A DNA stretch of 64,000 nucleotides from Methanobacteriota archaeon (GCA_963769885.1 CAVYNH010000006.1:672001-736000); one strand, 5' to 3'; positions 577-29,300 are shown, counted from the first letter of the stretch. The notes: generated from the letters alone by a model not told the origin. Numbers and translations are program-made.

Positions 577-861
577 CTATTCTACTCTCGAATAACCTTG
601 TTCGCGTTTCATGAGATTGATAACTTTAACTTCTTTATTTTCGATAAGATAAATAATCCTGTATTCACCTACTCGAAGACGGTATTTCTTCGGATGTGTG
701 TCTACTAACATTTTGATATCACATCCTGCTCGAGCTGTACGAGGATCTTCTTTCAGTCCTAGTAGGCTTATTCTGACATTTTTTTGCAGCTGTTCTGGCA
801 GTTCATGGAATGCTTTTTGAAACGTTCGTGAAACCAGAACGACGTACGTCATCTGGTTCAC
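577..861 (-). CDS. relE: RelE/ParE-family type II toxin
   Basis: 94 aa with YRLRVGEYRIIY RelE signature; 4-bp overlap with the upstream antitoxin gene. Confidence 0.9.
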   Translation of the reverse strand: MNQMTYVVLVSRTFQKAFHELPEQLQKNVRISLLGLKEDPRTARAGCDIKMLVDTHPKKYRLRVGEYRIIYLIENKEVKVINLMKREQGYSRVE

Positions 862-1043
862 AACTCATCGAGCGAAATGAATTCGTCCTCGGCAAGAATC
901 TTGTTCCAGGAATCATCCAATTTTTTCCAGGCGAATCTCTTGATTAATTTCTTAATAATCGAATCGTAGGTTTCGCCTTTTGTCCCCAGGTCCTGCAAGG
1001 CTTTTTTTGTTTCGTTGGTGATTGCAATGGTTGTGTTTCCCAT
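858..1043 (-). CDS. Antitoxin, RHH-like N-terminus and acidic C-terminal tail
   Basis: TTIAITNETKKALQDLGTKGETYDSIIKKLI (archaeal RHH-like antitoxin pattern), ends DEFISLDEL; coupled to relE. Confidence 0.85.
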   Translation of the reverse strand: MGNTTIAITNETKKALQDLGTKGETYDSIIKKLIKRFAWKKLDDSWNKILAEDEFISLDEL

Positions 1044-1351: not shown

Positions 1352-1365
1352 AAAAACATTTATAA
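1352..1365 (+). promoter_or_regulatory. BRE/TATA promoter of the HTH-HEPN operon (probably leaderless)
   Basis: A-rich BRE-like run then TTTATAA about 24 bp upstream of ATG 1389. Confidence 0.55.
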
Positions 1366-1388
1366 TATATTTTGATATACTTTATTGC

Positions 1389-1691
1389 ATGAGCGATGAT
1401 GAATTTAAAGAAATCATCATTTCAAAATTAGATCGAATTGCTAATTTGTTGGAGATGAATGAAAAAAGAGAAATAGAAAATTTAAAAGTCCGATTGCTTG
1501 GACGGTCTAAAATTAAAAAAGAAATTTATGATCTTATAAACGGAGAAAGAACAGTACAAGAAATAGCCAATCTATTGAAAATTGCTCAACCAAATATAAG
1601 TAAAGCAATTGCTGACCTTGTGGATGGAAATCTTATCGGAAAAAAGACCAAAGGGAAATTTGTTATTTATTACAAAAAGTATGAAGGTTGA
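1389..1691 (+). CDS. Winged-HTH protein (ArsR/MarR-like), paralog A1
   Basis: RTVQEIANLLKIAQPNISKAIADLVDGNLI HTH plus wing; N-terminal helix SKLDRIANLL. Confidence 0.85.
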   Translation: MSDDEFKEIIISKLDRIANLLEMNEKREIENLKVRLLGRSKIKKEIYDLINGERTVQEIANLLKIAQPNISKAIADLVDGNLIGKKTKGKFVIYYKKYEG

Positions 1692-1695
1692 AAAA

Positions 1696-1989
1696 ATGAA
1701 TGATTTAGTTCTTTCAGAGGAAAAGGCAGATACGATAATTGCATTATTGAAATTAATAGCTGGCCAAAATATCAAGGAAATTAAAGAAAAACGAGAACAT
1801 TTACTTAGCGTCCCTAAAAAGAACTCTATTTTAGACGCGTGTGATGGAACAAAGGAATTGAATCAAATAGCCAAAAAAATAGGTGTATCTTATGAATATG
1901 TCCGGTTGACGGTTGCAGAATTAGAGAATGCAGGTTTAATAATTTTTATCAGGAGTGGAAAAAAGAATCTACCAAAGAAGGTGATATGA
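1696..1989 (+). CDS. Winged-HTH protein, paralog A2
   Basis: Probable start ATG 1696 (or 1681); KELNQIAKKIGVSYEYVRLTVAELENAGLI; N-terminal helix EKADTIIALL. Confidence 0.85.
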   Translation: MNDLVLSEEKADTIIALLKLIAGQNIKEIKEKREHLLSVPKKNSILDACDGTKELNQIAKKIGVSYEYVRLTVAELENAGLIIFIRSGKKNLPKKVI

Positions 1990-2204
1990 TTTCAGAAAAA
2001 GAAGATCCGATACTATTGGAATTAAGAAAAATAACAAACAGACTTGATGTTCTAATCGCATTCAACGCTATGCAAACAAATAGACCTGATTCAGACAAGA
2101 TAAAACTATTAAAAAAATTTGGACTTGGCTATGATGAGATACAAAATACATTATCCGTCTCACCCTCAACAATATCCAAAGTTCAAAAGGGGAAAGTGAA
2201 ATGA
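1986..2204 (+). CDS. Small HTH protein, paralog B1
   Basis: GLGYDEIQNTLSVSPSTISKV HTH; N-terminal NRLDVLIAF; ATGA overlaps on both sides. Confidence 0.8.
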   Translation: MISEKEDPILLELRKITNRLDVLIAFNAMQTNRPDSDKIKLLKKFGLGYDEIQNTLSVSPSTISKVQKGKVK

Positions 2205-2482
2205 ACGATAACAAGAATGAGCCAGCCGAGGAAAACGAAATATTAAGCAGACTAGATGTAATCATTTATCTATTATTAAAAGAGCAAAAACAATTGCCTA
2301 CTTCCAAGAAAAATATGGAAGAGCTTGTTAAAATGCTGAAGGGATTGGGAATTGAAGATTATAAATCTATTGCAAAAATTATCAATGCAAATCCTGGATC
2401 TGTGGCAAATATCCTTACCCGATTAAAAGGAAGTAAGAAAGTGAATAAAAATGTCCGAGAGAATAGATTCAAGAATCCTTGA
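2201..2482 (+). CDS. Small HTH protein, paralog B2
   Basis: DYKSIAKIINANPGSVANILTRLK HTH; N-terminal SRLDVIIYLL. Confidence 0.8.
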   Translation: MNDNKNEPAEENEILSRLDVIIYLLLKEQKQLPTSKKNMEELVKMLKGLGIEDYKSIAKIINANPGSVANILTRLKGSKKVNKNVRENRFKNP

Positions 2483-3200
2483 AAGAATAAAAGCTTGCCC
2501 TAAGATAAAAATATCTATTGCGGCCGTAAAAAATGAAATTTCTGAGATTAGAAGAGATAATCCGGGAGTTAGTTTAAATGCCGCAGCATGCGAATTTGCA
2601 AAAAGAAGAGGAGTCAATTTGATGAGGTATTTAGGAGATACAGATAGAACCACCTTATCATACATACGAGAAAGCCCCCAGCATACAATTGCGAAGGAAG
2701 AAAATAAAATAAGATCTATAAAAGTAAAACAGAATATTCCTACGGATGTTCCATACTTAACATCTGCCGATATATCAAATGCAGAAAAAATGTCTGTAAC
2801 TTATATTATTCTATATTGTTTTGAAAACTCCGTGAGAAGATTCATTATCGAACAATTGGAAAAAGCATATGGACCCAATTGGTGGGAAGATAAAATACAG
2901 GATAAAATAAAAAAAGAAGCTGATATTAATAGGAACCAAGAAAAAGACAAGAGATGGCATGCAACTCGAGGAGCTCATCCAATATATTATTTGACAATGA
3001 ACAGTTTAAGAAAAATAATTACTGATCAATGGCCTTTGCTGAAAAAAGTAATTAGAGAAGATCAAACATGGATCACAAGCAGATTGAATGAAATTACAGA
3101 TTCTAGAAACATAATAGCCCATCATAATCCCTTACCAAAAAGGGAAGTTGAAAGAATAATTCTCTATTTTGATGATTGGAAAAAACAAATGAAAATATAG
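2451..3200 (+). CDS. Swt1-like HEPN domain protein (predicted RNase)
   Basis: YIILYCFENSVRRFI...YGPNWW...SRNIIAHHN, with the Rx4H catalytic motif; extra helical N-terminal domain. Confidence 0.85.
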   Translation: MSERIDSRILERIKACPKIKISIAAVKNEISEIRRDNPGVSLNAAACEFAKRRGVNLMRYLGDTDRTTLSYIRESPQHTIAKEENKIRSIKVKQNIPTDVPYLTSADISNAEKMSVTYIILYCFENSVRRFIIEQLEKAYGPNWWEDKIQDKIKKEADINRNQEKDKRWHATRGAHPIYYLTMNSLRKIITDQWPLLKKVIREDQTWITSRLNEITDSRNIIAHHNPLPKREVERIILYFDDWKKQMKI

Positions 3201-3205
3201 AATTT

Positions 3206-4048
3206 TTAGATGTCTATAGTATCCGTCATTATTTCGTATTTACAATTCGTGCAACCAACCCGAATATGAACAGTATCAGGAGGCTCCTCATAGCCACCAC
3301 CTGAATAACGCTGTGTTTCCTTTATATGGCCACCACACGCTGGGCAAATTGAATCTTTTAATAAGGCATCTTCCCAAGCATTTATTTTTGAAATGACTTC
3401 TATAAATTTTGTTAATTTTTCTAAATCAGAATGATCTAAATCAGTTATTCTATGAATTTCTTTTATTCTCTTTTCAATAATTTTTTTTAAGGAGGGAATT
3501 TCAGAATAAATATCATCTTTCACTATTGGTGCATAGACATATTTTGCCACGTAGGGTGTTTCAAGTCCATAATTTGAGAGTATAATCTCCGATTGACTTA
3601 GGTAAAAATCAGTGATTCTCTTAAAATAATCAATGAAGTTAAAACCTTTAGAGCTCCTATAATATCTTACACCTGCCTTTAGAATCCACTCTTTGAATAA
3701 AGGAGCCTGCTGCCGGATATCCACTAGATCCTGTCCATCTGGAGAGAAGAAATCATCATGTTCTATTTTCTCTCGAATGCAATTAATCTTATTTATCAGT
3801 TGATTCCATTTTTCAATTTGATCAATGGTAGATAGTGGTCTATTAATTTGATTCCATCGTGTCTTTAAATGGGCTATTTTTAATGATTCAATATCATACC
3901 CCACGTGATTTGTGCCGACGACCAAAAGAAGCTTCATAAAATAATCCCATAGAAATTTGGCTGAAGCACGCCGCTCATCTGCACTTTCCTTTGGTGTTTT
4001 ATCATAAGATTCTAAGATGCTTCTTAAATATTCTTCTAGGTCAACCAT
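3206..4048 (-). CDS. HEPN-like protein with C-terminal Zn ribbon
   Basis: REKIEH (Rx4H) in a helical N-domain; CPAC...CTNC at the C-terminus; ATG start at 4048. Confidence 0.6.
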   Translation of the reverse strand: MVDLEEYLRSILESYDKTPKESADERRASAKFLWDYFMKLLLVVGTNHVGYDIESLKIAHLKTRWNQINRPLSTIDQIEKWNQLINKINCIREKIEHDDFFSPDGQDLVDIRQQAPLFKEWILKAGVRYYRSSKGFNFIDYFKRITDFYLSQSEIILSNYGLETPYVAKYVYAPIVKDDIYSEIPSLKKIIEKRIKEIHRITDLDHSDLEKLTKFIEVISKINAWEDALLKDSICPACGGHIKETQRYSGGGYEEPPDTVHIRVGCTNCKYEIMTDTIDI

Positions 4049-4067
4049 TAGTATTATCAATACTAAT
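4047..4067. promoter_or_regulatory. Perfect 9-bp inverted repeat overlapping the start of the HEPN/Zn gene (candidate operator)
   Basis: ATTAGTATT-ATC-AATACTAAT. Confidence 0.5.
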
Positions 4068-4276
4068 AGCCTATTTTAAGCTGAGTTTCATAGAGACCGT
4101 CAACCAGGCTAATTTTATTGGGTCAGCTTGATGTACGTCCAGATAAGAGTTGAGCAATTACGGCCTGAACCAAATCCATGTTATAAAATAAATTAGTATT
4201 ATTTTGCTTAAATACTTTATACTTTAAAGAAATTTTAGAATATACAAAGCCCCCTCAAGTTCAGGAAAATCGTTAC

Positions 4277-4410: not shown

Positions 4411-4523
4411 CAGGAGTATATAAGGAGAGAAATCATTCATTTACTCCAAGAAAAAATAGGTCAAAATGACCCCCAGATGGTTTGAGCATCCAGGGGTCTG
4501 AGACCATAATAGAGGTGTCTATT

Positions 4524-5504
4524 ATGATCCCGAACGGGAACAATACCAATAGTGGTAATAAGATTTTGGTGCAGGCCAGTCTCGAGCAGATAGTAATCGA
4601 AAAGCCATTGATCACACTACAACCTAAACCGGTCATGCCTTCTATCGTGCCGACTCCTTCTCCGAAGAATGAAACTGACAACGACAAACTCTTGGACAAG
4701 TTCAACCGCTATATGCGTGAGAACAACTACAGCAAGAGCACCATCTACATGTATACGAAGGTCGTCGGCCAGATGCTTGCCATGAAAGATTCGTTCTCCA
4801 TGACGGAGGATGATCTCAGCGACGTTCGGCTCTATCTTGTTGAACGCTATGCCCAGAATGGGAACCGGGCGAGGTTCGCTGCTATCAATGCTTTCTGCAA
4901 GCATATCCTCAAACGAAAAGACCTACATCTCAAGATCCCCAGTCCCGTCATCAAGAACAAAGACGTGTTCACCAACGAGCAGATTGACGCTATCCTTGCC
5001 ATTGCGAAAACGAAGAATAAACTCGCTTATGCCGTCCTTCAGACTTTGTACCATTGCGGACTACGTAAGATGGAGTTGTGCAATCTGAATCTTGCTGACC
5101 TTAATTTCGACACCATGGAATTGAAACTGAACAACACCAAGACAGGCAACGCGATTGTCTCCATGACCACCGCCGTTGCCAAGTCTCTGCAGGACTATAT
5201 TCAAAATGAACGACCTAAGAAAGAAGATGAACAAGCGGTATTCCTCAGTAAGAAAGGTGTGCGAATCGGTGAATGGACTGTCCGAGGATACCTCAAGGAA
5301 TGTGGGAAAGAAGCCGGGATTAAATCCCGGATGTATCCACACATGCTACGAGCATCATGCATTACACATCTTTTAAACAAAGGAGTGAATCCACTAACCG
5401 TTCAGCTCCATGCAAGGCATAGGAACTTCATGACAACCATGAGATATAATCGGCCAACTCAGCAGCAGATGAAAACGGATATCGAACGAATTTTCTCGAA
5501 GTAA
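4524..5504 (+). CDS. Tyrosine recombinase/integrase (Xer-like)
   Basis: Catalytic residues GLRKMEL, TKTG, HMLR, ARHR, TMRY; SAM-like N-domain; GAGGTG RBS before ATG 4524; no IntI-type insertion visible. Confidence 0.92.
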   Translation: MIPNGNNTNSGNKILVQASLEQIVIEKPLITLQPKPVMPSIVPTPSPKNETDNDKLLDKFNRYMRENNYSKSTIYMYTKVVGQMLAMKDSFSMTEDDLSDVRLYLVERYAQNGNRARFAAINAFCKHILKRKDLHLKIPSPVIKNKDVFTNEQIDAILAIAKTKNKLAYAVLQTLYHCGLRKMELCNLNLADLNFDTMELKLNNTKTGNAIVSMTTAVAKSLQDYIQNERPKKEDEQAVFLSKKGVRIGEWTVRGYLKECGKEAGIKSRMYPHMLRASCITHLLNKGVNPLTVQLHARHRNFMTTMRYNRPTQQQMKTDIERIFSK

Positions 5505-5568: not shown

Positions 5569-6459
5569 ATGCCAATATTTGACGATGTCGGCAAAGCGCT
5601 TAAAAGAACTAGCGATGTAATTAAAAAAACAACCGATGGGATAGCGAAAAATATTGCTGCAAGTCAAGAAAATGCAAGGAGAAAACGGGAGATTTTAAAT
5701 AGATTCGTTATGGATGATTTGAAAAAAATATGCAAGGAATATGGAATTGGCGAGCCAGATCCATACGAAGAATTTTTTGGAGAAAGAACAAAGAAGAAAA
5801 TAACACGAAACGATTACATAGATTATATTGAAGAGAGGCTAGATTTGAAACACATCGAAGACTTTTGTAATAACCATAGAATAAAGAGGCAAATTGAAGT
5901 TGAATCTGGAGTCGAGGCACAAAAAGACCATCCTTCTCGACCAGAGCCTCCAATAGTAAATGAATTACGGAATGAAGAAAACAAAATCCAAGAAAAGACT
6001 TCAATAGTGACGACAGCAAATCAGAAACCACAGGGAGAAACTCACGATATCCTTAATACAATAAAGGAACAGTTCAAACCAGAGCCCTGCATGAACGAAA
6101 AAGAACTACAGGGTCAGCTAATGATCTGGTTCAATATTATGTATCCCAATCGGGTCGTGCGAGAGGTCTCCACGATGGCTGGAAAAGTCGATTTTGCGAT
6201 TGATAAAAATAGACTTGGACTCGAGGTAAAAATAGCTTTTGACAAGGGGACCTTGAGAAACCTAGTAGGTCAAATTCTCGCTTATAAAAAATATTTCAAT
6301 GAAGTAGGTATAATTTTGATGGATGTCAATGATATGCCAAATTCGATAATTACTGAATACATTAATGAATATAGAAATCAAGGCGTCGAAACCATAGTAA
6401 TTCAAGGGCAAATTAGGAAAAAGAAAGGAAGACCCAGAGAAGTCCGTGTAAAATATTAA
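5569..6459 (+). CDS. PD-(D/E)XK restriction-endonuclease-fold protein
   Basis: C-terminal EV...VDF...LEVK...GQILAY pattern; helical N-terminal domain and low-complexity linker. Confidence 0.7.
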   Translation: MPIFDDVGKALKRTSDVIKKTTDGIAKNIAASQENARRKREILNRFVMDDLKKICKEYGIGEPDPYEEFFGERTKKKITRNDYIDYIEERLDLKHIEDFCNNHRIKRQIEVESGVEAQKDHPSRPEPPIVNELRNEENKIQEKTSIVTTANQKPQGETHDILNTIKEQFKPEPCMNEKELQGQLMIWFNIMYPNRVVREVSTMAGKVDFAIDKNRLGLEVKIAFDKGTLRNLVGQILAYKKYFNEVGIILMDVNDMPNSIITEYINEYRNQGVETIVIQGQIRKKKGRPREVRVKY

Positions 6460-9085: not shown

Positions 9086-10000
9086 CTACCACGTCCACGT
9101 GTAATCGTACGGTTGTGGTGCAGGGCGCCAGTCAATCCCGGACTTCAAGGGGAAGATGATGGTTGGAAGGCGATGCAGAAACGGGATATCGCTCCTCCAT
9201 CCGATCCAGTAGTAATTCTTGTGCCAGTAGGACGGCGCACCGCCGCGCGCGGGCACCAAGAAGTTATTCTCGATAATCTTGCTACCCGCACCGGCCCCGG
9301 AGAGGCTGATAGCAGTGGCACCGCACAAATCGCACGGCCAGGAGAAGTTGTTGTGTGCTACCAGCGTGTTCTGAGCACCGGCGGTGATCAGTAAATCGTA
9401 CCCGAAGTGGTTGTCGAAGTGATTCTGCCGAATGGTGTTGTCACAGCCCCCTGAAAGAAGAATTCCCGCTTCATACAACTCAATGAGTTCGAAATAGTTA
9501 TGAAAGATTGACGAATTAGCAACGTTGTTGAAAGTAATGGTACTCATGGTGGTGTAAAGGTCGCAATTCGAAATATTGACATCCGAAACGCCGTCAGCGA
9601 TGATGGCATAGGAGGTGATGATCTCGCCACCTTCGTACGTGATGCGAAAGCCATCTACTTTGACGGAATCGCGGATGATGTGAATGGCGGGCCGTTGCCA
9701 ATCGCATGCTTGCAGGGATACATCGTGGTGGTCTGCAATGAGCGAAATGGATTTGTTGACAACAACATTTTCCCAGTAGAAGGGTTCGTGACGGTACACG
9801 TACACGGTGTCGCCATCAAGGGAGGCGTTGATCGCATCTTGAATGGCTGTGTAGTTCCCAGGGCCGCTCCCACCAACGTACAGTGTGGCCCCAGTGTACG
9901 TCGTGGGTGATGGTAGGGATGCTTCGTTCGCAAAGGCGAAGACAGGAGGCATCAAGGCGAGAACGCCGATCATTCCAAAGACTACTATTTTATTTCTCAT
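9086..10000 (-). CDS. Secreted parallel beta-helix (NosD-like) protein
   Basis: Signal peptide from ATG 10000 (MRNKIVVFG); YVGGSGPGNY; C-terminal IDWRPAPQPY. Confidence 0.85.
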   Translation of the reverse strand: MRNKIVVFGMIGVLALMPPVFAFANEASLPSPTTYTGATLYVGGSGPGNYTAIQDAINASLDGDTVYVYRHEPFYWENVVVNKSISLIADHHDVSLQACDWQRPAIHIIRDSVKVDGFRITYEGGEIITSYAIIADGVSDVNISNCDLYTTMSTITFNNVANSSIFHNYFELIELYEAGILLSGGCDNTIRQNHFDNHFGYDLLITAGAQNTLVAHNNFSWPCDLCGATAISLSGAGAGSKIIENNFLVPARGGAPSYWHKNYYWIGWRSDIPFLHRLPTIIFPLKSGIDWRPAPQPYDYTWTW

Positions 10001-10025
10001 GAATTTTCCTCCGTTATCGATCAAG

Positions 10026-11312
10026 TCAAATCGTGTACGGTTGTCGAGCAGGATGCCAGTCGACATTGACCCATGGAATATTGAAAGGAATGGATTGGAA
10101 GGGATTGAAATAGTAGTTGTAGGTGAAGCTTGTTCCAAGAATGACCTTTGGGAAGGCTCGAGGCATGGTCCAATAGTTATGCCACCACAAGGTCCGCGTG
10201 TACGCGAAGCGGGCGTTCCTGATATTGTGCATGAAGTTGTTTTCCTCGACGATGTTTGGTTTCAAGGCAAAGTAGTGCAGATTGTCCCCAGCAATTGAGA
10301 TGCCGAGGGCATTGTGTTCAATCGAGTTTCGTTCAATGGTATTTCGCTGGCAGGTGGCAAGCTTGATTCCGATGGAACAATTCGTAATGGAATTGTGGAT
10401 GACGGTGTTTGCATCTGACGAGAGGAGACTAATACCAACCGAGACGGTGGAGATATTGAGGTCGCGCACGGTCATATAATGACAGGAAATAAGGAAGAGT
10501 TGTCCAACATCATTGCTAGCATCGATGGTCTTGTTTGCTTCTCCATTTAACATCAGAAAAGACTTGCCGTTGACGTTATTTTTGCTAAAGGAATTATTGT
10601 ACGCATCCGTATCTTCGAGGTTGAACCCACACTGGATGCAGGTGTTTCCTTCAAAGGTGTTCATCCGGGAGTAGACAATGTTGATCCCTATCAACCCACC
10701 ATGGGAGATGATGGTGTTGTTGGCGATGACATCATCCTGATCGTAAATGACGTTGATGGCTGTACTTGCCTTTTCTTCCAGGATGAAGGTGTTTCCGATC
10801 ACCGTGCTATTCCGTTGACCACGGAAGTCGAGATTATTATCCCACTTGTTAAAGTCATCGTAGTACACGTACATCGTGTTATTGTCGAAATGGTTAAACG
10901 AGCCAGCATAGATTCCCATGGAATTCTTAACAATATTATTGTCAAGGGTGATACTGCTCCTCATGTTCGAATAGAAGAACCCATCAATCGTAAATCCCGT
11001 AATTCGAATCTTGTCCTCGAATACTCCAAAAGAACTAACTTCGGTCGTGGTTCTGTTCTCCCCGACGATGGTCAGTTGTTTGGTGATATCAGCCTCCCCG
11101 TACGGTGAACTATCGTCATAGACAAAGATGAAGTCCCCATCATATGCGTCACGAACTGCCGCATTGATCGTGGTATAGTTACCAGGTCCGCTGCCACCAA
11201 CGTACAAGATATTTTCTCTTCCGCCTTTTCTTTGTCCTAAGTCGCGCGCAGTAACGGAAACGCAAAAGCCAATAACAATGAAGATTGCACCAAGAATGAA
11301 CAGCTTGTTCAT
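10026..11312 (-). CDS. Secreted parallel beta-helix (NosD-like) protein
   Basis: Signal peptide; YVGGSGPGNY; Asn-ladder repeats; C-terminal VDWHPARQPY. Confidence 0.85.
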   Translation of the reverse strand: MNKLFILGAIFIVIGFCVSVTARDLGQRKGGRENILYVGGSGPGNYTTINAAVRDAYDGDFIFVYDDSSPYGEADITKQLTIVGENRTTTEVSSFGVFEDKIRITGFTIDGFFYSNMRSSITLDNNIVKNSMGIYAGSFNHFDNNTMYVYYDDFNKWDNNLDFRGQRNSTVIGNTFILEEKASTAINVIYDQDDVIANNTIISHGGLIGINIVYSRMNTFEGNTCIQCGFNLEDTDAYNNSFSKNNVNGKSFLMLNGEANKTIDASNDVGQLFLISCHYMTVRDLNISTVSVGISLLSSDANTVIHNSITNCSIGIKLATCQRNTIERNSIEHNALGISIAGDNLHYFALKPNIVEENNFMHNIRNARFAYTRTLWWHNYWTMPRAFPKVILGTSFTYNYYFNPFQSIPFNIPWVNVDWHPARQPYTI

Positions 11313-11372
11313 GAATTGCCTCCATATATAGTAAAAGTTATCAGTTATTTAAATATTCACATGAAAATCACA

Positions 11373-11490
11373 TAGCCTTGTTCTTACAGGGTATGAGATA
11401 TTCTTCAAGAAAAAGTGCTTTCTTTCCCCTAGCAATTCCACTGTAAGGTACTATAGTGTGAAAATCATCTAGCGATACTGCTATAAGATA
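11373..11490 (+). repeat. Three island motif copies between divergent genes
   Basis: TAGCCTTGTTCTTACAGGGTA (11373), TAGCAATTCCACTGTAAGGTA (11430), TAGCGATACTGCTATAAGATA (11470); first and third both preceded by TGAAAATCA. Confidence 0.65.
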
Positions 11491-11540
11491 AATCACACTT
11501 TTCTAATAAATTATAAATAGCTTCTATCCAATTTCTTTTC

Positions 11541-11927
11541 ATGGGTAGGATAGTCAAAGATATAATTGTCGATGGTAAAATTAGACAAGCGATCTTTGAT
11601 AGTGGTTCAGTCGTCAGTTACGTGACGGAAAAAGCTTTACCTGAATCAGCCGTTTGTATTAATGTATCCCCCATAACATCTCGAGTAGCGGGTTCCACTC
11701 ATCAACTAACAAAGCGCTGCTTCATCCCAAGCAAACTCGATGGAAAGGATTTCGATTTTGATGCATTTGTCATCGATAAACTCGGTAAAGTCCAAGAAAA
11801 AGGAGACGTAGATCTGGATTTTTTAATAGGCGCAGCAACGATGGAAGAATGGTCCATCAGTATAAATCCAAAGGAGCAAACTGTTGACCTTCGCGGATTG
11901 AAAAGACGAGAATTTCTCTCTTTCTAA
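11541..11927 (+). CDS. Retropepsin-like (clan AA) aspartic protease
   Basis: AIFDSGS catalytic motif and FLIG motif; single-domain, 128 aa. Confidence 0.8.
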   Translation: MGRIVKDIIVDGKIRQAIFDSGSVVSYVTEKALPESAVCINVSPITSRVAGSTHQLTKRCFIPSKLDGKDFDFDAFVIDKLGKVQEKGDVDLDFLIGAATMEEWSISINPKEQTVDLRGLKRREFLSF

Positions 11928-12021
11928 ATTTCAAATCTATTATCTTCCAAGAAAAGAAATCCTTCCGATGGAAATGGAAGAAAAAGACATAAAATTACAA
12001 TGAAATACTATTAAATTTCCA

Positions 12022-12042
12022 GATTAATTCCACTATGAGGTA
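12022..12042 (+). repeat. Terminal island motif copy adjacent to the DUF2207 stop codon
   Basis: GATTAATTCCACTATGAGGTA, 2 bp from the stop codon at 12045. Confidence 0.6.
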
Positions 12043-12044
12043 AG

Positions 12045-13805
12045 TTATCTTCCTCCTGCGCCGCCGCCGCCAAACCCTCCGCCGCCACCGAAGCCGCCCC
12101 CATGTCCTCCTGCACCGGATGCCGCAGAAGTCATGACGGCGCGATTGACGCCATAAAACGACGCGTAAAACACCGGGACGAACGTTACCTCAGGGACGTT
12201 GATATTGAGTTTCTTCATAACCTTTGCAAGTTCCTTGCCGACACCAAGAGTCGTCCCATAAACGAGCCATTCCTTCCACACCGACAGGTCCTCAAGCCGA
12301 TATTGCTCCAGGTGCACCATATCCGCAAGAAACCGCCGGAAGGAATCCCACTCCTGCCTCTCCTTATAGTAGTCGTCTTTCCATCGCCCAAAGAGCGTCG
12401 GGGACGCCGCAGTCGCAATCACGGCTTGGACCGATAATATGAGCGAGTACGCCATGGCCGCGAACAACAGGGGATACACGCCTCCAAAGATACCGAACAA
12501 GATCAACGTGAGGATAAAGGACAAAACACCTATGCCAATGAAGACGGCGGGCAGTCTCCGTCCGCTCGTCATGAATTCTTTAGACAGCCTCGTGTCGGCT
12601 TTTCTGGTCAAGTACCGCATCTCGCGCTGGAGTGTCATAATCTGGGGCTGATTGTGCATGCCGGTGATCTCCGCTTCGAGCGCCGCTGTGGAAAACACGT
12701 TGTTTTTAGCCCATTTCGAAAGAAAAGACACGGCCCTTTGTTCATACTCGTCCAAGCCCTCGGCATGGTTGTTGATATGAATTTTAATGGTGCTTTCGTC
12801 CTCCGTTTCGATGGTGATGATCTTTCGCTGATGGAGGTCAAGCAACGTCGCGTAGAACCCGTTTGGGTTATAATCCTCGGCGCTTTTCACGAAGACTAAG
12901 TTCACAATCCATGGTTTTCGTTTCGCTGGGACGACGTTCAAGAATGTGGGGACGACAGAGCTTTTCTCCCGGCCTTTGAGAACATAGAGGACGAGGAGAA
13001 TGACGACAAAACCAACGACGAGGACGAGGAGCAGGTCAGTAAAAACAGACACTGCTCCATTTGCGAGCGTGTAGGCATCGTTGGCCGATACCGTCTTTTG
13101 GTACACCCCTGGCACGGTCCGGTGATAACCATAGGATATGTTATGTGAAAGGATCTCGACTTCGAGGAGACTGTTGGCAGGGCTCGCCCCGGTGATGGTG
13201 TACGTCGAGCCTGACTTCACGAGGTTCATCTGAGGGCGGGTGTAGATCGTGACGATGTCTCCAGAGGGGTCGTCTACCGTGATCTCAACGGATTTGTAGG
13301 CAATGTGGGTCGCGGCGAGCTTCAGGTTCAGGTGGTCGTACTGACCGTCGGACTCTACCGGTGGGGCGATGGTGTAGTTGATGCGAAGCGTGTAGATGCC
13401 TTCGTTGAAATGATCGGGGTTGTAGCATCCGATCTCGGAGTCGAAGGCCTTCGAAGCTATATCGGGGGCGGAGCTGAGCCAGACCCGCCCCGTGTAATCC
13501 TTGATATATGGTGAGTATGGGCAGGTCACGTTTGTGACCTCGATGTAGGGCTGAGAGGATGTCTGTTGATACGTGACGTTGTCCTCCCAATATCGGTAGA
13601 GCATCGTGTATCTGCCGCTCGCCTTGACGTTGTACTGGAAGGTCTCCTGCAGCCTGCCGTCGGGAGAGAGCGTCGCCTTGTAGCTGTTGACGACGAGGTC
13701 GCCTTCAAGTGGGAGGGCGTTGACGATGAGGATGCCGATGCCGGCGACGAGGACGACGACAGCCAGGACGATCGTCAGCTGACGCGGTTCGTTCACTGGT
13801 TCCAC
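12045..13805 (-). CDS. DUF2207 family membrane protein
   Basis: TM segments, W..F..FL, WLVYG..LGV, Gly-rich C-terminus GGGFGGGGAGGR; coupled to lemA. Confidence 0.88.
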   Translation of the reverse strand: MEPVNEPRQLTIVLAVVVLVAGIGILIVNALPLEGDLVVNSYKATLSPDGRLQETFQYNVKASGRYTMLYRYWEDNVTYQQTSSQPYIEVTNVTCPYSPYIKDYTGRVWLSSAPDIASKAFDSEIGCYNPDHFNEGIYTLRINYTIAPPVESDGQYDHLNLKLAATHIAYKSVEITVDDPSGDIVTIYTRPQMNLVKSGSTYTITGASPANSLLEVEILSHNISYGYHRTVPGVYQKTVSANDAYTLANGAVSVFTDLLLVLVVGFVVILLVLYVLKGREKSSVVPTFLNVVPAKRKPWIVNLVFVKSAEDYNPNGFYATLLDLHQRKIITIETEDESTIKIHINNHAEGLDEYEQRAVSFLSKWAKNNVFSTAALEAEITGMHNQPQIMTLQREMRYLTRKADTRLSKEFMTSGRRLPAVFIGIGVLSFILTLILFGIFGGVYPLLFAAMAYSLILSVQAVIATAASPTLFGRWKDDYYKERQEWDSFRRFLADMVHLEQYRLEDLSVWKEWLVYGTTLGVGKELAKVMKKLNINVPEVTFVPVFYASFYGVNRAVMTSAASGAGGHGGGFGGGGGFGGGGAGGR

Positions 13806-14350
13806 CTCGTCTCTGGCTTGTGCTGTGATTCGTCCTCGAACTGCAGGTACTCAAGTTTTTTGAAGGAGAACAGTCGTGCGACGATGCTGGAGGGGAACGT
13901 CTCGGACCTGGTGTTGTAGTCCTGCACGATGTTGTTGTAGGTGTAGCGGAGCCTGGCGATCTCGTCTTCGACGTCCGTGATCGCGTGCATCAGTTGTGTG
14001 ACGTTCTCGGAGGCTTTCAGGTTCGGGTAGGCTTCGACGACGGCAGAGATCCGGTCGAGGAGCCCGCGCGAGCCTTGGTTAATCCGGGTGACGGTCTGCG
14101 TCGTCTCCGGCTGTTGGATGATGCTGCGGATCTCGGCGACTTTCTCGAAGACCCCGCGTTCGAATTTGGCATAGCTCTTGACGATATCGACCAATTGAGT
14201 GATCATGTCGAATCGTTTCTTCAACGCGACCGCGATCTGACTGAGCCCAGCGTCCGCGCCGTTTTTCAGGATCTGGAATTTGTTGTAGGCGAGAATGAAG
14301 AGAACGATGACCAGGACGAGGACAAGTGTACCGAGCAAGATGAGAAGCAT
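13793..14350 (-). CDS. lemA: LemA family protein
   Basis: N-terminal TM; SQI.VALKKRFD; EAYPNLKASEN; RY.YN..V..YN...FPS. Confidence 0.92.
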   Translation of the reverse strand: MLLILLGTLVLVLVIVLFILAYNKFQILKNGADAGLSQIAVALKKRFDMITQLVDIVKSYAKFERGVFEKVAEIRSIIQQPETTQTVTRINQGSRGLLDRISAVVEAYPNLKASENVTQLMHAITDVEDEIARLRYTYNNIVQDYNTRSETFPSSIVARLFSFKKLEYLQFEDESQHKPETRWNQ

Positions 14351-14441
14351 GAGGGGAGTAGTGGAAAAAAATATTTAAAGATACCTTCCCGTAGGAAGCG
14401 TAAACAAATAACTTTTCAGGGAATAGAGTTCCCCTGAGGCA

Positions 14442-15512
14442 TCACACCGTGGAGTACGCGTAGGGCTGCTGGGCGGGATGCCGGTCGACCTCAACACGCG
14501 GGAGATGCGGCAGATCGATTTTATGCCCATGCCAGAAGACGCTCCAGCCCCTGACGAGATACGGATGGTCCAACGACGCGTTCCAGTAGTTCGCATCCCA
14601 CGTCGTCGAGCCGAACGGCCGATAATACCTCAGGACATAGGACTCGTTGAAATACCGGGCCTCCCTCAGGTAGTTTAGCTCCCAGTACGGCAGTTTCGCG
14701 AACATCGCGTCCCGCGCGTTCCCCAGGAAATTGTTCCGCTCCACCCGATCGTCGCAGGAACAGTTGATCTCCAGGCCCAGGCTGTTTCCCTCAAACGTGT
14801 TCGTCGCGATCGTGTTGTTTACCCCGTAGGAGTCATGGATCCCTTCCCTGCTGTTGTTCCGGAAGGTGTTCAAGAGGACCCTATTGTGACAGCAGCCGTA
14901 GAGCACCATGCCGAAATCGTTGTCCTCGATGATGTTGCCCTCAAACGTCGAGTCGTTGCAGCGGTACTCGGTCATAATGCCGATGTAGGTGCGGCTGATG
15001 CGGTTGTCGAGAAGGCGGATGCGCTCCCGCTGGGTGACCGGAAGCCAGAAGACCTTGAGGTTGATGCCCATGTTCGCGTCGCTGACCGCCGTCTGGCTGA
15101 TGGTCACGTCGTCCGCGCAGACGATGATATTCTGGATCCCGTTCTTAACCGTAAAGTTGCGGATTTGGACGCCGTCGGCCAGGACCCAGATCAGGACCGC
15201 GATGGAGTGGTTCCCGTCAAGGACGGTCGTGTTCGTCGCCTCGCCGACCAGGCTGATGGACGTGTTGATGACCAGCGTCTCGTGATACGGGGTGGAGTCG
15301 TCATAGACGAACACCGTATCGCCATTGGCCGATGCGTTGATCGCGTCCTGAATCCTGGTATAGTTATCCGGTCCGCTGCCGCCGACATACCGGATTGTTC
15401 CCGTTTGGACCGGCGTGGGTGTCCAACGGCCTGGGATGGGTGCTGAGGCAGCCGTAAGCAGGCTGGAAAGAAGCAGTACGCATACAGAAAATATCACGGT
15501 TATCGTCTTCAT
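14442..15512 (-). CDS. Secreted parallel beta-helix (NosD-like) protein
   Basis: Signal peptide; YVGGSGPDNY; C-terminal VDRHPAQQPY. Confidence 0.85.
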   Translation of the reverse strand: MKTITVIFSVCVLLLSSLLTAASAPIPGRWTPTPVQTGTIRYVGGSGPDNYTRIQDAINASANGDTVFVYDDSTPYHETLVINTSISLVGEATNTTVLDGNHSIAVLIWVLADGVQIRNFTVKNGIQNIIVCADDVTISQTAVSDANMGINLKVFWLPVTQRERIRLLDNRISRTYIGIMTEYRCNDSTFEGNIIEDNDFGMVLYGCCHNRVLLNTFRNNSREGIHDSYGVNNTIATNTFEGNSLGLEINCSCDDRVERNNFLGNARDAMFAKLPYWELNYLREARYFNESYVLRYYRPFGSTTWDANYWNASLDHPYLVRGWSVFWHGHKIDLPHLPRVEVDRHPAQQPYAYSTV

Positions 15513-15642
15513 CGTTTCCTCCAAGGACAATAGAAGAGCCCTGGGTTATAAATAATTTGTTGCTCCGCCACCCCCGAATGAAAAGAATTTAATAATAGCC
15601 TGCTCTATTGGAGGGCTAGATTATCGTTTTTTGGAGGAAAAC

Positions 15643-23334: not shown

Positions 23335-26300
23335 TTAATATTGCTGTGATACCTGCCCAGTGTTGTTTTTGGTCGGCATTTCTTTATGTTCAGTTGGTGG
23401 AGGCTGAATTGTAAGGTGACTCTTGGGAATCTCAGAGACAATCACCGACTTGAACAATCCAAAAATTAAGAAGTTTGTTTTAAGGTCGACGATTAAACCT
23501 GGTCTTTTCCCATGTCGGACGAGAAGCTCTTCAGGATAGGAAGATGAATTAAAACTGATGAGCTGCCCAGGGCCTCCTCCTGAAAATCGAACGTAGACTA
23601 TCTTCAAAATTCTGTAATAATCCCAATCCCCGACTGATCGTTCGTCGGTAAGAGCACCAACGATAAACATACGGTAATAGGTATCGACATGCTTAACGTT
23701 GACTTGGATGATTTCTGAAAAATTGCTCTCCGCGCCTTTTGAGTCCCGCGATTTCACAGAAACTGAATAGATCTGCTCGCCATTCCAGCTATGGGTAAGG
23801 ATTTTATCGTCTCCTGAATGGCACCATTCGGTCCAGTCAGTTGTAGTGCCATCACCCCAGTCGACGAGATAGGAGATATTGTCGCTTTCTGGATCTGTCG
23901 CTTGAATCAGGCATGAGTAGGTTTCATTCGGTAACCACCATGACGGATTTTGATACAGAATATCTCCGACAATCGGCGCCTTATTGATTGTGAAGCTCCA
24001 GTTCAAGCTGCTGGCTTTTTTGTGATAGAAATCCCATGCAACGATTCGCCAATTGTAGAGTACGCCTGTATTAAGGTTAATGGCGGCAAATGACGTATTT
24101 GTTATGTTATGCGCAATGAGCGGCGGTGGACTCGTGACTCCCAAGTATACGTCATACGTGACAGCATCTCCTGGGTCCGGGTCGCCTCCCTCCCAAGAGA
24201 GGGTGATGTTTGGTAGAACCCCAGTTGCTCCATCCGGTGGGAATGGATTGGATGGTGGATATGGGGCATGGTCCGGTGGTGAGGTCGTAAATGACCATAC
24301 AACGCTCACGTTACTGACTCCATGGTTATCCCATGGCACTATCTTCCAGTAATAGGTCGTAAGGTTCAAGAGGATTCCTGGGTCATAGGATGTCCCCGTT
24401 TGGTTAGATACGACATGAGGTGGAGGATTGCTAGTTCCGAAGCATACATCATAGGTCACGATATCACTAGAATCAGGATCACCACCTATCCAACTCAGCG
24501 TGACCTCATTGCTGACATTAACAGACTCGTCTGGTGGAAATGGATTATGTGGTTGATAAGGTCGGTAGTTGGTAGTAAAATGCCAGATGGGTATTGTCTG
24601 GGCTGGTTCGTGGTAGTTGTCCCAAGGTATTATCTTCCAATAGTAGATGATTCCGTAGTTCATTGTTCCTGGGGTATATGTAGTGGTTGATTGGTTTGAG
24701 ATTACTTTTGGTGGTGGATTGGTAACACCGAAATACACGTCATAGGTCACCGTGTCCCCTGGGTCAGGATCTCCACCCTGCCAGTTAATTGTGGTGTTTG
24801 GGTTTACGCCAGTGGTTCCATTGGTTGGATTTGGAGTGTGTGGGTTATATGGTGGAGCATTTACAAGAGTAATATTTTTCGTAATATCATCAAATGATCC
24901 GTCATCATCCCAAACAATTAAAGTGACATTGTATCTTCCAAAATTGCTATATAAATGGGTTGGATTTCGTATTGTACTATGGTTTCCATCACCGAACAAC
25001 CAGTACCAGCTGATTATTGTGCCATCCGGATCGGTCGAATTGTCATGGAAACTCACGTTAAGGGAACCTCGGAATGATGCGTTATAACGATAATTCGCAG
25101 TAGGGGCTACATTGAGGACTTCAATAAATTTTGTTATATTATCGGATTGTCCTCGGTTATCATATACTGTGAGTTCAACTTTATATAATCCATCGTCAGC
25201 ATATCGATGTGTTGAGTTTTGATTTGTCGAATTCGATCCATCTCCGAAGTCCCATCGCCAGCTGACGATGACACCGTCATCATCAGTTGCGGTACTATTA
25301 AAATGAATAGTGATCAAATCAGTAGGGAATTCTGGGGTAGTGATGAAATCCGCATTAGGCGGTGAGTTGATATGAACTGACCAAGAAGCAGACCAATTAC
25401 TTTTCACAGAATATTTATCTGCGGCTTTTACACTTATATTGTATGTTCCGGGTGAATGCCAGGTGTAATTAAAAGTTATGAGATTCCCTGATGGATAAAA
25501 CATGGTCCAATCGTCTATAATGTGATCACCGTTCATATCCCATCCATATTGGATGGTATCGTTATCGGGATCAATTGCCGAGGTTGTAAAAGAATATATC
25601 GTATGAAGAAATCCTTGTGATGGACCGGAGGGCATACTGGGGGTGGTTGGAGCGTTGGTCGGTGGAATATCGAAAGCGTGATAATCATAGAACGCTGTGG
25701 TATAACAGTTATTGAGACTATCGATGATGTCTCCGTTGCTGTCTAAAAAGATAATGCTCTGAAGGGTATATGGACCGTTGATAGCGTTTTCATAGATGTG
25801 GCTGCCATTGAATCGTAAGGTGATGTTGTTTGACGTTGTGCTTAGATTCGTGACTGTTAGTGTGGACGTGATTTCCTTTTGAGTGGTATCGTAGAGTGTT
25901 CCGATTAATTGGTATGTCCCAGTAGTATTTACATGGACGTCTGCTTTGATTGACAGATAATCATATTTGGTATCATTGTCGCCATCTACGCCATAGTCTG
26001 AGAAGGTTTCATTGAGGTAGGATTTTGGTCGTTGAAAATCAGAATAATTATATTGACTGGTGACATAGTTAATATTTTCCTCATATTTGTGATCTGAAAG
26101 TGATAATGACAGGTTATATGGTCCGTTTATTCTTTGTTGATATATTTTAGGTCCATCAATATTGAAGTATATTGTATTATTTCCTTGTGAAAGGTTGAAG
26201 GCTTCTACTTTTGTGTCAATTAATTTTCCTGATGAGTTATATAAGGTTCCTCCGATGGTATATGTTCCTGCAATTACTGTGTTTGTATTGAGTTCTATGG

Positions 26301-29300
26301 TCAGATAATTAAATAACCCATCTGATCCTGTGTCATTACCATAATCATCGATAGTTAATGGTTTTATAAGAATTCCTTGGAAATCCGAAAAATGATAGTA
26401 TGATGTATTGAAAATTTTCTGATCTATTACATCATAGTGTTCATCTCTTAAAGTGATGATAGGATGATAGATTCCATTTATTTTATTATCAAAAATATCT
26501 TTTCCTAGGATAGAGAAATTCATTTGATGAATCCCACTCGTAAGATATTTAATTATTCTTAGGGACGGTTTCAGTGAAGAATATTCTGGAAAGATACATC
26601 TGGTTCTATTCAGGGTTAATGTCGTTTCTATAACATAATATCCTGGGGTTGAGATATTTACTTTGAATTCATAAATCAGATAATTATATAAGCTATTGTT
26701 ATCATTATCAACACCGTAATCCAGAAAGTAATTAGTTATCTGAGTCCCATTACTCGTGAGAGGTTTAACTCTTGAATCTTTCTCTATACTATTGTTTTCG
26801 ATTGGTGGTGGTGTGTGGCTTTCGTATTTGAATTTTCCCCATTTCCCGAAATGTGCAAAATCTAGCTCTGAGGTGATTTTTCTTTGATTCCCACTAGTCC
26901 CAGAATAGGCTATATCATATCCTAAAATATTATAAGTATCTTTTATTCCATCCCCATCTGTATCTATAAATTCTCCCTTCCACATCTCCCAATATGCTCT
27001 GCTGTCCACGTTAATCCAAGGATCTGTAACAGAAAATCCTTGCGTCACTCGAAAAGTAGGATCATAACCTTTTCCGTTGTAGATACCATAGACATGGTCA
27101 TGGAAATCCCATCGATCTTTATTCATCCAAGTCGTTTGATAAGCGTTTCCACTATCTCCATCGAGCGCAATACAAGGAGTTTTTGTTAAAAATGCTGCAT
27201 CCATTTCTTGATTCGTTATGGTTACTTCCGGATCTTCATCATTATCAAGGTTAAGATAACAATTACTTGACAATTTATTGTATAAATCTTGTTCTCCAAC
27301 ATCAATTCCCAATGTAGCTGCTAAAAACTGTAAAACTTCATGAAATGCGCCACAGCTTCCCTCCTCATTTACAGAATTACTAGGATTGCTAATGTACCGA
27401 GTAATTAAATTATGGGCTGTGTACTCATTGGTAGAGCCGGCTTGGTATCTCCACCGAGGCGTATTAGTAATTTTTTCTGTGATCGTTTTGACAATCACAT
27501 TATCATCAGAGAGTCCATTTGCCCATCGTGTAGCTAAGTCAATATATGCGGGTCGAACTAAATTAGATTTTACCCCCATATAATGATAAATTGCGCCTTC
27601 CTTTACATACCAACCTTTCGCAGTAGGTGCTGCAAAAGTCACGTACACATAGGGAGTAAATGTTTTTGACCATTTGACTTGATTGTTATTGTCCTTGATT
27701 TTAAAAGTAATTGAGAGTGTGTAATTTCCAACGTTATTTGGTGTTGTGATAGCAGTAGTTGTTCCACTATAGCCATCAAAGTTTCCGGAACCTGATTTGC
27801 CGTTAAGACTCCATGTGTATTCAACCTTTGGCGTCCAGGTAGGATTATAATTCTTATCGACTGTTGCTTTTATTTGGAAAGTAGTTCCCTTCACATCTGC
27901 GATATGGCTATTTCTTGTTGGGGTTGTCGCTCCAAGGTTCTGTTGCCAAAAAATATCTCCATCATCGTTTTCGCCATTATTGTTATGGTCGTACTGAACA
28001 TCTTCTAGAGATTCTAGTTTCGTTACGCAAATCAATGGAGGTTGCGTGGATCCAGTAATTTGTGTACTCCCCGCTGAATAGTAGGTGCTGTCGCTGTCGT
28101 AAGCCCATGCTCGAAAATAATAGGTGGTGCCTATGGTAAGACCTGTAACCGTTGTTGCTGAACCAGTGTCGAAATACGCTTGATCTCCTTGTGATGGAGA
28201 ACTGGGATATCCGGTGGTACTGCGCCGAATCATTGTTTTATCGCCATTGGTTCCTTTCGTCCATGAGAGTGAAATCGAGGTAGTTGTTGTTGTTGTCACT
28301 TGGAGGGCTGAGGGATCACCTGGGAGTGTATACTCTGAATCTTGAGCATACCCAGTTGAATACAAGCCTGTACCGCTGTTATATGCCCATGCGCGGTAGT
28401 AATAAATTTGACCTGGGGTTATACCTGTGTTTGTTGTAGAAGTACCTGTTCCATAGTATGCTTGATCTCCATTGGTGTAGGAGGTAGGCCATGTGTCTGT
28501 TCTTCTTCGAATCATTGTATAATCACTACTAGAGCCTCTTGTCCAGGTTAGATAAATTGAGCTAGATGTCGGATTTTGAGCATTCAAATTTGAGGGATCA
28601 CCCGGGGGTGAAGGACCTGATGGATCGGTTCTTCCAGATATCTGGGAGCTTCCTGTCGAGTAATAGGTGCTATCGCTGTCGTACGCCCATGCACTGAAAT
28701 AATAGAGAGTATCTGAACTCAGACCGGTTACTGTAGTTGATGAACCTGTATCAAAATACGCCTGGGTTCCTGATGAGGGGGAGCTGGGATACCCGGTGGT
28801 GCTTCGGCGGATCATTGTCTTATCACCACCAGTTCCTTTTGTCCATGCTAGAGAAATAGAACTTGATGTATGGCCTGTTACATGGAGATTTGAAGGATCA
28901 CCAGGTAATGTGTAAAAGGTTTTATCACTTCCATAGCTGGTCCCCGCACTATTTGATGCAGCAGCTCGAAAATGATAGAGTGTACCTGGAGTGAGGCTAC
29001 TAATACTTGCGGAAAATGCTCCTGTAGACGTTTTTGGTTGATGGGCGGTCTCAGAACCGTAACTCGTTGTCAAACCATATTGAAACCAGACGTCACAAGA
29101 ACTCGCACCGCCCATAGAATCCAGGTTACCATTTAGAGTTGCAGATGTACTTAAAAGGCTTGATGCATCGTTTGTCGTAACTGTTGGTGGGGAAAGTGTT
29201 GTATACACTATATTAAGTTTTGGTCGATAATTTCCTCCTTTTTCAGCCGAATAAACGCAAATATATTCTGGAGTATCTAAAGGATCTTGATCTGGAGGTG

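Follow-up and report, generated by a model that had tools for sequence, protein, structure and literature searches.

What does a run of four small helix-turn-helix (HTH) genes do in front of a gene for a HEPN protein? The question is raised by an operon at 1389-3200 of the window, by which we mean the whole 64,000-nucleotide stretch of a Methanobacteriota archaeon genome analysed here (GCA_963769885.1, CAVYNH010000006.1:672001-736000). A first-pass annotation had described five tightly packed genes behind a TATA promoter, encoding two winged-HTH proteins, two short HTH proteins with a shared N-terminal helix plan, and a HEPN protein that keeps its Rx4H motif intact and has an added N-terminal domain. 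This description holds throughout. Five ORFs run in one direction, joined in turn by a 4-bp gap and by overlaps of 4, 4 and 32 bp, and both 4-bp junctions (at 1986 and 2201) are ATGA overlaps. The array reads W-W-S-S, the W family having a winged HTH and the S family a short trihelical one, and is followed by the HEPN gene:

1359-1366, plus strand: likely archaeal TATA box TTTATAAT, its centre about 27 nt 5' of the ATG at 1389
1389-1691, plus strand: W1, 100 aa, N-terminal helix and winged HTH (W-family HMM, 3.5e-26)
1696-1989, plus strand: W2, 97 aa from the ATG, N-terminal helix and winged HTH (W-family HMM, 3.5e-27)
1986-2204, plus strand: S3, 72 aa, N-terminal helix and short trihelical HTH (S-family HMM, 1.9e-12)
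2201-2482, plus strand: S4, 93 aa, long N-terminal helix, sigma-region-4-like HTH and basic tail (S-family HMM, 2.3e-15)
2451-3200, plus strand: HEPN effector, 249 aa, with an AROD-like N-domain, a linker and a HEPN domain of the Swt1/Abi2 clade (Pfam HEPN_Swt1, 9.2e-12)
2823-2837, plus strand: ENSxR motif (E125, N126, R129) in the first HEPN helix
3105-3122, plus strand: catalytic Rx4H motif RNIIAH (R219, H224)
3203-3207, plus strand: T5 run just past the stop codon that may serve both the operon and the convergent gene as an archaeal terminator

The spacing of TTTATAAT from the first ATG and the archaeal host make it the likely TATA box, and its position suggests that the mRNA is leaderless or nearly so. 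No operator-like repeat common to the promoter stands out, the AT-rich repeats there being unconvincing, and neither a tandem repeat within or directly upstream of the operon nor an Rfam match was found. All five proteins are basic (pI 9.2-9.7), which leaves no obvious charge complementarity for a complex.

The four small proteins were classified with family HMMs built from the loci that were fetched with the HEPN alignment (alignments A3 and A4), and these reproduce the division into two winged and two short HTH proteins. Members of the S family (~55-110 aa) begin with a long helix, which is followed by a trihelical HTH and a tail rich in Lys/Arg, and 14 of 38 match Sigma70_r4_2 weakly. The AF2 model of S4 (pLDDT 76) has helices at residues 8-30, 36-48, 54-60 and 65-91. 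Members of the W family (~100-145 aa) combine an N-terminal helix with a winged HTH and give weak MarR, ArsR or TrmB-like matches; W1 itself passes the HTH_5 cut-off narrowly (23.8 bits against 22) and matches MarR_2 and TrmB weakly. The N-terminal helices noticed earlier (SKLDRIANLL, EKADTIIALL, NRLDVLIAF and SRLDVIIYLL) are all present, and the S and W profiles align over helix and HTH (E 3.7e-5, probability 71%). Judged by profile comparison, the relationship between the two families is distant and their common helix-plus-HTH plan is real.

The effector scores 45.7 bits against Pfam HEPN_Swt1 (PF18731; cut-off 27.5) and stays below the cut-off for Abi_2 (18.8 against 25.6). Its family is large, with 1302 cluster representatives at E<=1e-3 and 522 at E<=1e-10, many of them 250-270 aa long and alignable end to end. 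Across 40 full-length relatives the residues of both motifs, E125, N126, R129, R219 and H224, are invariant. The AF2 model (pLDDT 91.7) resolves two domains, an N-domain at about residues 1-70 and the HEPN domain at about 105-249, on either side of a linker whose residues ~71-90 are of low confidence. Residues 108-249 are nearest in structure to the PbAbiF toxin (8vz6; Z 9.3, rmsd 4.0 over 142 residues), and the domain also superposes on the AF_0298 HEPN protein (Z 7.7) and on the C-terminal domain of yeast Swt1 (Z 7.5); since helical folds easily give middling Z values, these matches back the sequence evidence and are no proof. The informative comparisons were VIA-align and the profile searches: Foldseek against the PDB returned no match at E<=0.001 for the effector model or the S4 model. 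Taken together, we assign the effector to the HEPN superfamily, and within it to the Swt1/Abi2 clade. HEPN enzymes usually act as dimers. When a complex between the HEPN protein and S4 was modelled (alignments A2 and A3), the score was 0.00, which speaks neither for nor against an association. Among viral sequences, a pattern-based scan of IMG/VR contigs returned no relatives, and in PHROGs, W1 was the only one of the five proteins to find a match, a weak one to a family of unknown function (phrog_5978, 8.6e-5).

At its N-terminus the effector carries a bundle of three helices that is a homolog of AROD, a domain of archaeal Rpa1. The fit between residues 5-62 and the AROD of Pyrococcus abyssi Rpa1 has a Z of 7.2 and an rmsd of 2.2 over 55 residues, at 29% identity, and the effector-family profile matches AROD by sequence (E 1.2e-5). 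The AROD of RPA has been described as an archaea-specific and acidic domain, which serves in protein-protein interaction and shows no DNA binding (PMC10122647). It is fused to an OB fold, whereas the domain described here is fused to HEPN and is basic, with a net charge of +5 and a pI of 9.8 in the window protein and a median net charge of +4.5 in the family. This charge, and the presence in seven relatives of a W-type winged HTH on the HEPN protein in place of the AROD-like domain, suggest that the N-domain may bind nucleic acid or a partner protein. The basic AROD-like domain also occurs in bacterial HEPN members from Ignavibacteria and Actinomycetota (e.g., L005:4923-5130 and L007:2883-3090). 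Within the order of the host, four frames of 149-175 residues match the N-domain part of the profile only (G047:C29:24217-24393, G052:C4:108352-108552, G036:C76:31170-31337 and G089:C364:404-742); three of the four are interrupted by stop codons, and they may correspond to the stand-alone AROD proteins reported for Thermoplasmata.

The operon lies in a foreign island of 33-40% GC, within a genome of 57-59%. The 16S of this genome is archaeal (1510 bits), and a 30-nt stretch of it is shared exactly by Methanomethylophilaceae, Methanoplasma and Thermoplasmata MAGs, so the host is a Methanomassiliicoccales-like archaeon. Among the 118 genomes searched in its order, the full-length effector was found in the window's genome only, and a sister species of the same genus gave no effector match. 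The first 12 kb of the window have 33-44% GC (33-35% over the operon), against 56-62% in most of the rest. The operon is placed between a 16-bp site at 1133-1148 and a recombinase gene, and the following genes surround it:

577-861, minus strand: ParE/RelE-type toxin
858-1043, minus strand: DUF7557-type antitoxin
3206-4060, minus strand: 284-aa protein of no firm family, encoded convergently to the operon, with a Zn ribbon (CxxC...CxxC) at its C-terminus
4482-5504: tyrosine recombinase (Phage_integrase, 4.3e-34)

The 16-bp site (GTACCCTACACGGTCA) is an exact copy of GTAYCC-N5-GGTCA, and together with a near-copy at 547-562 that has one mismatch it brackets the ParE/RelE pair; window-wide, the pattern occurs 4 times where 1.7 would be expected, which is no excess over chance. 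The Zn-ribbon gene was considered as a part of the module and rejected, having no homolog beside any other array. Its start lies within a palindrome, TTAGTATT-ATC-AATACTAA (4049-4067), a half-site of which recurs at 4194-4203; the palindrome is absent from the operon promoter, which gives no sign of a shared operator. Past the recombinase, 5569-6459 encodes a 296-aa protein that matches a PHROG nuclease family (1.2e-14) and carries a weak DpnII/MboI-like signal. Farther along the window are several NosD/beta-helix surface-type proteins (9086-15530) and, on the minus strand, a 1957-aa ORF (23335-29208) that falls mostly within a second low-GC block (~26-28 kb).

A number of observations show that the association of the small genes with HEPN is no accident of this island. 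First, in all 25 complete loci encoding the long form of the HEPN protein, one to five S or W genes adjoin the HEPN gene, an association beyond chance; the small genes often overlap by 4 bp and are nearly all on the HEPN strand, one S gene in L028 being on the opposite one. These loci span Bathyarchaeia, Thaumarchaeota, Asgard archaea, Undinarchaeota, Actinomycetota, Ignavibacteria, Verrucomicrobiota, Aminicenantales and a metagenome, and they bear out the co-occurrence for which the first-pass annotation had proposed a neighbourhood search. Second, each of the closest effector relatives (33-40% identity) has three to four small genes upstream on the same strand. Third, 68 of 72 small proteins find their best BLAST match in another locus, at the same relative position and order, as in the trios of L007, L012, L014 and L033 or the W pairs of L004, L022 and L032; W2 of the window has its best match in L022, and S3 resembles the gene preceding the HEPN homolog in L001 (29% identity, E 3e-7). 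The sets of paralogs are therefore old and ordered, which argues for distinct roles. Fourth, full-length S matches were confined to the array in six whole genomes, that of the window included, and full-length W matches in the window's genome; by this measure, the small HTH genes are dedicated to the array. The surroundings of the module are less constant. A pooled PADLOC and Pfam scan of 132 proteins flanking 24 loci revealed no conserved extra partner, just a few scattered restriction-modification (R-M) or integrase genes amid housekeeping genes, and with neighbourhoods this heterogeneous an enrichment in defence islands is not demonstrated.

The array is also a module in its own right, found with effectors other than HEPN; this and the AROD-like nature of the N-domain are new beyond the earlier annotation. 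When S was used as the seed, the resulting sample of seven contigs comprised arrays ending in a Swt1-like HEPN protein (three), a TIR protein (one, L070), a membrane protein (one, L068) and proteins of no known family (two). In L070 (2724-6448) an array of the form W-W-S-W-x-S-x precedes a 514-aa TIR protein, which also matches PDC-S66 (1.2e-56) and ThsB, and an integrase gene lies ~700 bp upstream. When Bathyarchaeia were sampled with the W profile, arrays appeared in 24 of 301 genomes (about 8%). Twenty of these loci were fetched: five contain a Swt1-like HEPN gene, one (L116) a Ymh-type HEPN gene and one (L101) an HNH endonuclease gene, to whose product two further terminal proteins (L103, L107) are related, and the remainder finish in terminal genes of no known family or at contig ends. 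The number of HTH genes per array, four in the window, varies from one to eight elsewhere. In L101 and L104, the latter from the same species as L010, the array runs on beyond the HEPN gene; L101 (1539-5839) reads W W HEPN S W W W W followed by the HNH protein, and in both loci HEPN stands mid-array, as if two array-effector units had been joined in tandem. The variety of terminal proteins (TIR, HNH, Ymh-HEPN, membrane proteins and those of no known family) suggests that the array is a regulator or sensor whose effectors can be exchanged.

How does this arrangement compare with known toxin-antitoxin (TA) systems? The operon could be a type II TA module with several antitoxins, in which the HTH proteins are labile antitoxins and autorepressors and HEPN is the toxin, and which stabilises the mobile island or cassette array by addiction with no antiviral role. 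As in HigBA or the tripartite PaaR2-PaaA2-ParE2, small DNA-binding genes lie upstream of a nuclease gene and overlap it, on a mobile island with other TA pairs nearby; here the operon has a ParE/RelE pair and a recombinase as its immediate neighbours, and site-flanked cassettes are close by. Type II TA systems are known to mix antitoxin and toxin families. Against this, type II TA operons have two or three genes, whereas the window has four old paralogous HTH genes (up to eight elsewhere) and an effector; to our knowledge, no TA layout has two to eight conserved and ordered HTH paralogs for each toxin, and the terminal genes include TIR and large proteins typical of immune effectors. We regard an addiction module of the type II kind as an unlikely account. 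Two other schemes for the control of HEPN toxins fit poorly. The Abi2/AbiD/AbiF and Swt1-like HEPN RNases belong to the same clade by Pfam, and PbAbiF is the best structural match of the effector. Yet AbiF is held in check by an upstream non-coding RNA, whereas the DNA upstream of our effector encodes conserved proteins. HEPN-MNT systems, in turn, require a nucleotidyltransferase domain, and no neighbouring gene has one; exchangeable effectors, TIR and HNH among them, set the array family apart from these systems as well as from the type II and tripartite modules. With no MNT gene, upstream RNA repeat or Rfam match, neither HEPN-MNT nor AbiF-type control is supported.

The HTH proteins could instead be ordinary transcription regulators of the mobile element, with HEPN as a co-expressed RNA-processing or RNA-binding factor and no logic of toxicity or immunity. 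The resemblance of the S and W domains to generic DNA-binding HTH domains and the position of the operon next to the recombinase of the island are in line with such an explanation, which we nevertheless judge quite improbable: the array travels with interchangeable nucleases, TIR and membrane proteins in unrelated contexts, many loci have no mobile-element genes, and the catalytic residues are invariant.

Could the operon already have a name? Residues 91-247 of the effector, its HEPN domain only, match PADLOC PDC-M34B (PDLC04592; 5.1e-47). PDC-M34 is a candidate system predicted by 'guilt by embedding'; the PDC candidates as a class were selected for lying inside BREX, DISARM or type I R-M loci, as set out in 10.1101/2024.01.29.577857. 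It pairs a DUF5343 protein (A) with a HEPN protein of ~190 aa (B) that has the ENSxR and Rx4H motifs in common with ours. The PDC-M34B profiles, of 147-192 positions, lack the N-domain, whereas the window effector has its AROD-like domain and four HTH genes upstream. Genuine pairs occur in Actinomycetota (L015, L021 and L023-L026), where a DUF5343 protein of 206-215 aa overlaps a downstream 193-aa HEPN devoid of the N-domain and of S or W genes. The A proteins beside such short HEPN proteins score 1.6e-62 with PDC-M34A; among seven proteins of the window (the five of the operon and two flanking genes) none matched it at E<=1, and no PADLOC model recognised the small genes as a system component. 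Despite the HEPN match, that the operon is an overlooked PDC-M34 or another named system is thus barely credible, and the identification with PDC-M34 is rejected because its defining partner is missing. The statement of the first-pass annotation that the architecture matches no named system has accordingly stood. The passages on Swt1 in the 2013 survey of HEPN proteins (PMC3710099) do not describe this layout, and we found no description of it in the literature on PDC-M34, HEPN_Swt1/PF18731, DUF5343 or neighbourhoods of small HTH, HEPN and TIR genes.

We favour the explanation that the operon is a self-contained and horizontally mobile conflict module, serving antiviral defence or addiction, in which an HTH array is combined with a toxic effector; we give it a probability of roughly 0.58. 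The recurrence of the same HTH array and effector cassette in many archaea and bacteria makes it probable that the module is an undescribed one. This reading rests on 1) the conserved layout and the dedicated genes; 2) the ancient paralogs; 3) the fusions and the exchange of effectors; 4) the invariant catalytic residues, the AbiF-like fold and the membership in PDC-M34B; and 5) the foreign context. Its defence component is weakened by the heterogeneous flanking genes and by the basic nature of all five proteins. The mechanism could be as follows. The W-W-S-S array would be co-transcribed and translationally coupled with the effector, a conditionally toxic and probably dimeric RNase. The HTH proteins would repress the operon, hold or direct the effector, or do both, until infection, loss of the element or a similar trigger sets it free. 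Autorepression, direct binding by way of the N-terminal helices or the N-domain, and the sensing of foreign nucleic acid are possible means of regulation, and the HTH paralogs probably have non-redundant roles, possibly in a mixed assembly. A stronger version, which we put forward as tentative, would place the S/W array, as sensor or regulator, at the conserved core of an undescribed but widespread class of immune systems in prokaryotes: old, non-redundant HTH paralogs would detect invading DNA or the takeover of transcription, and their mixed nucleic-acid-binding assembly would release whichever effector is attached, be it Swt1-HEPN, Ymh-HEPN, TIR, HNH or a membrane protein.

If the conflict-module reading is true, HEPN, TIR and HNH conflict systems would have a new logic of control, in which an array of tiny, ordered and ancient HTH paralogs does the work of a single antitoxin, NTPase or signalling cyclase. 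In addition, the AROD fold, known from archaeal RPA, turns out to have a basic relative that occurs outside replication and beyond the Archaea. The compact 1.8-kb module is also present in Asgard, thaumarchaeal, DPANN-like and several bacterial lineages, in which few defence systems have been characterised.
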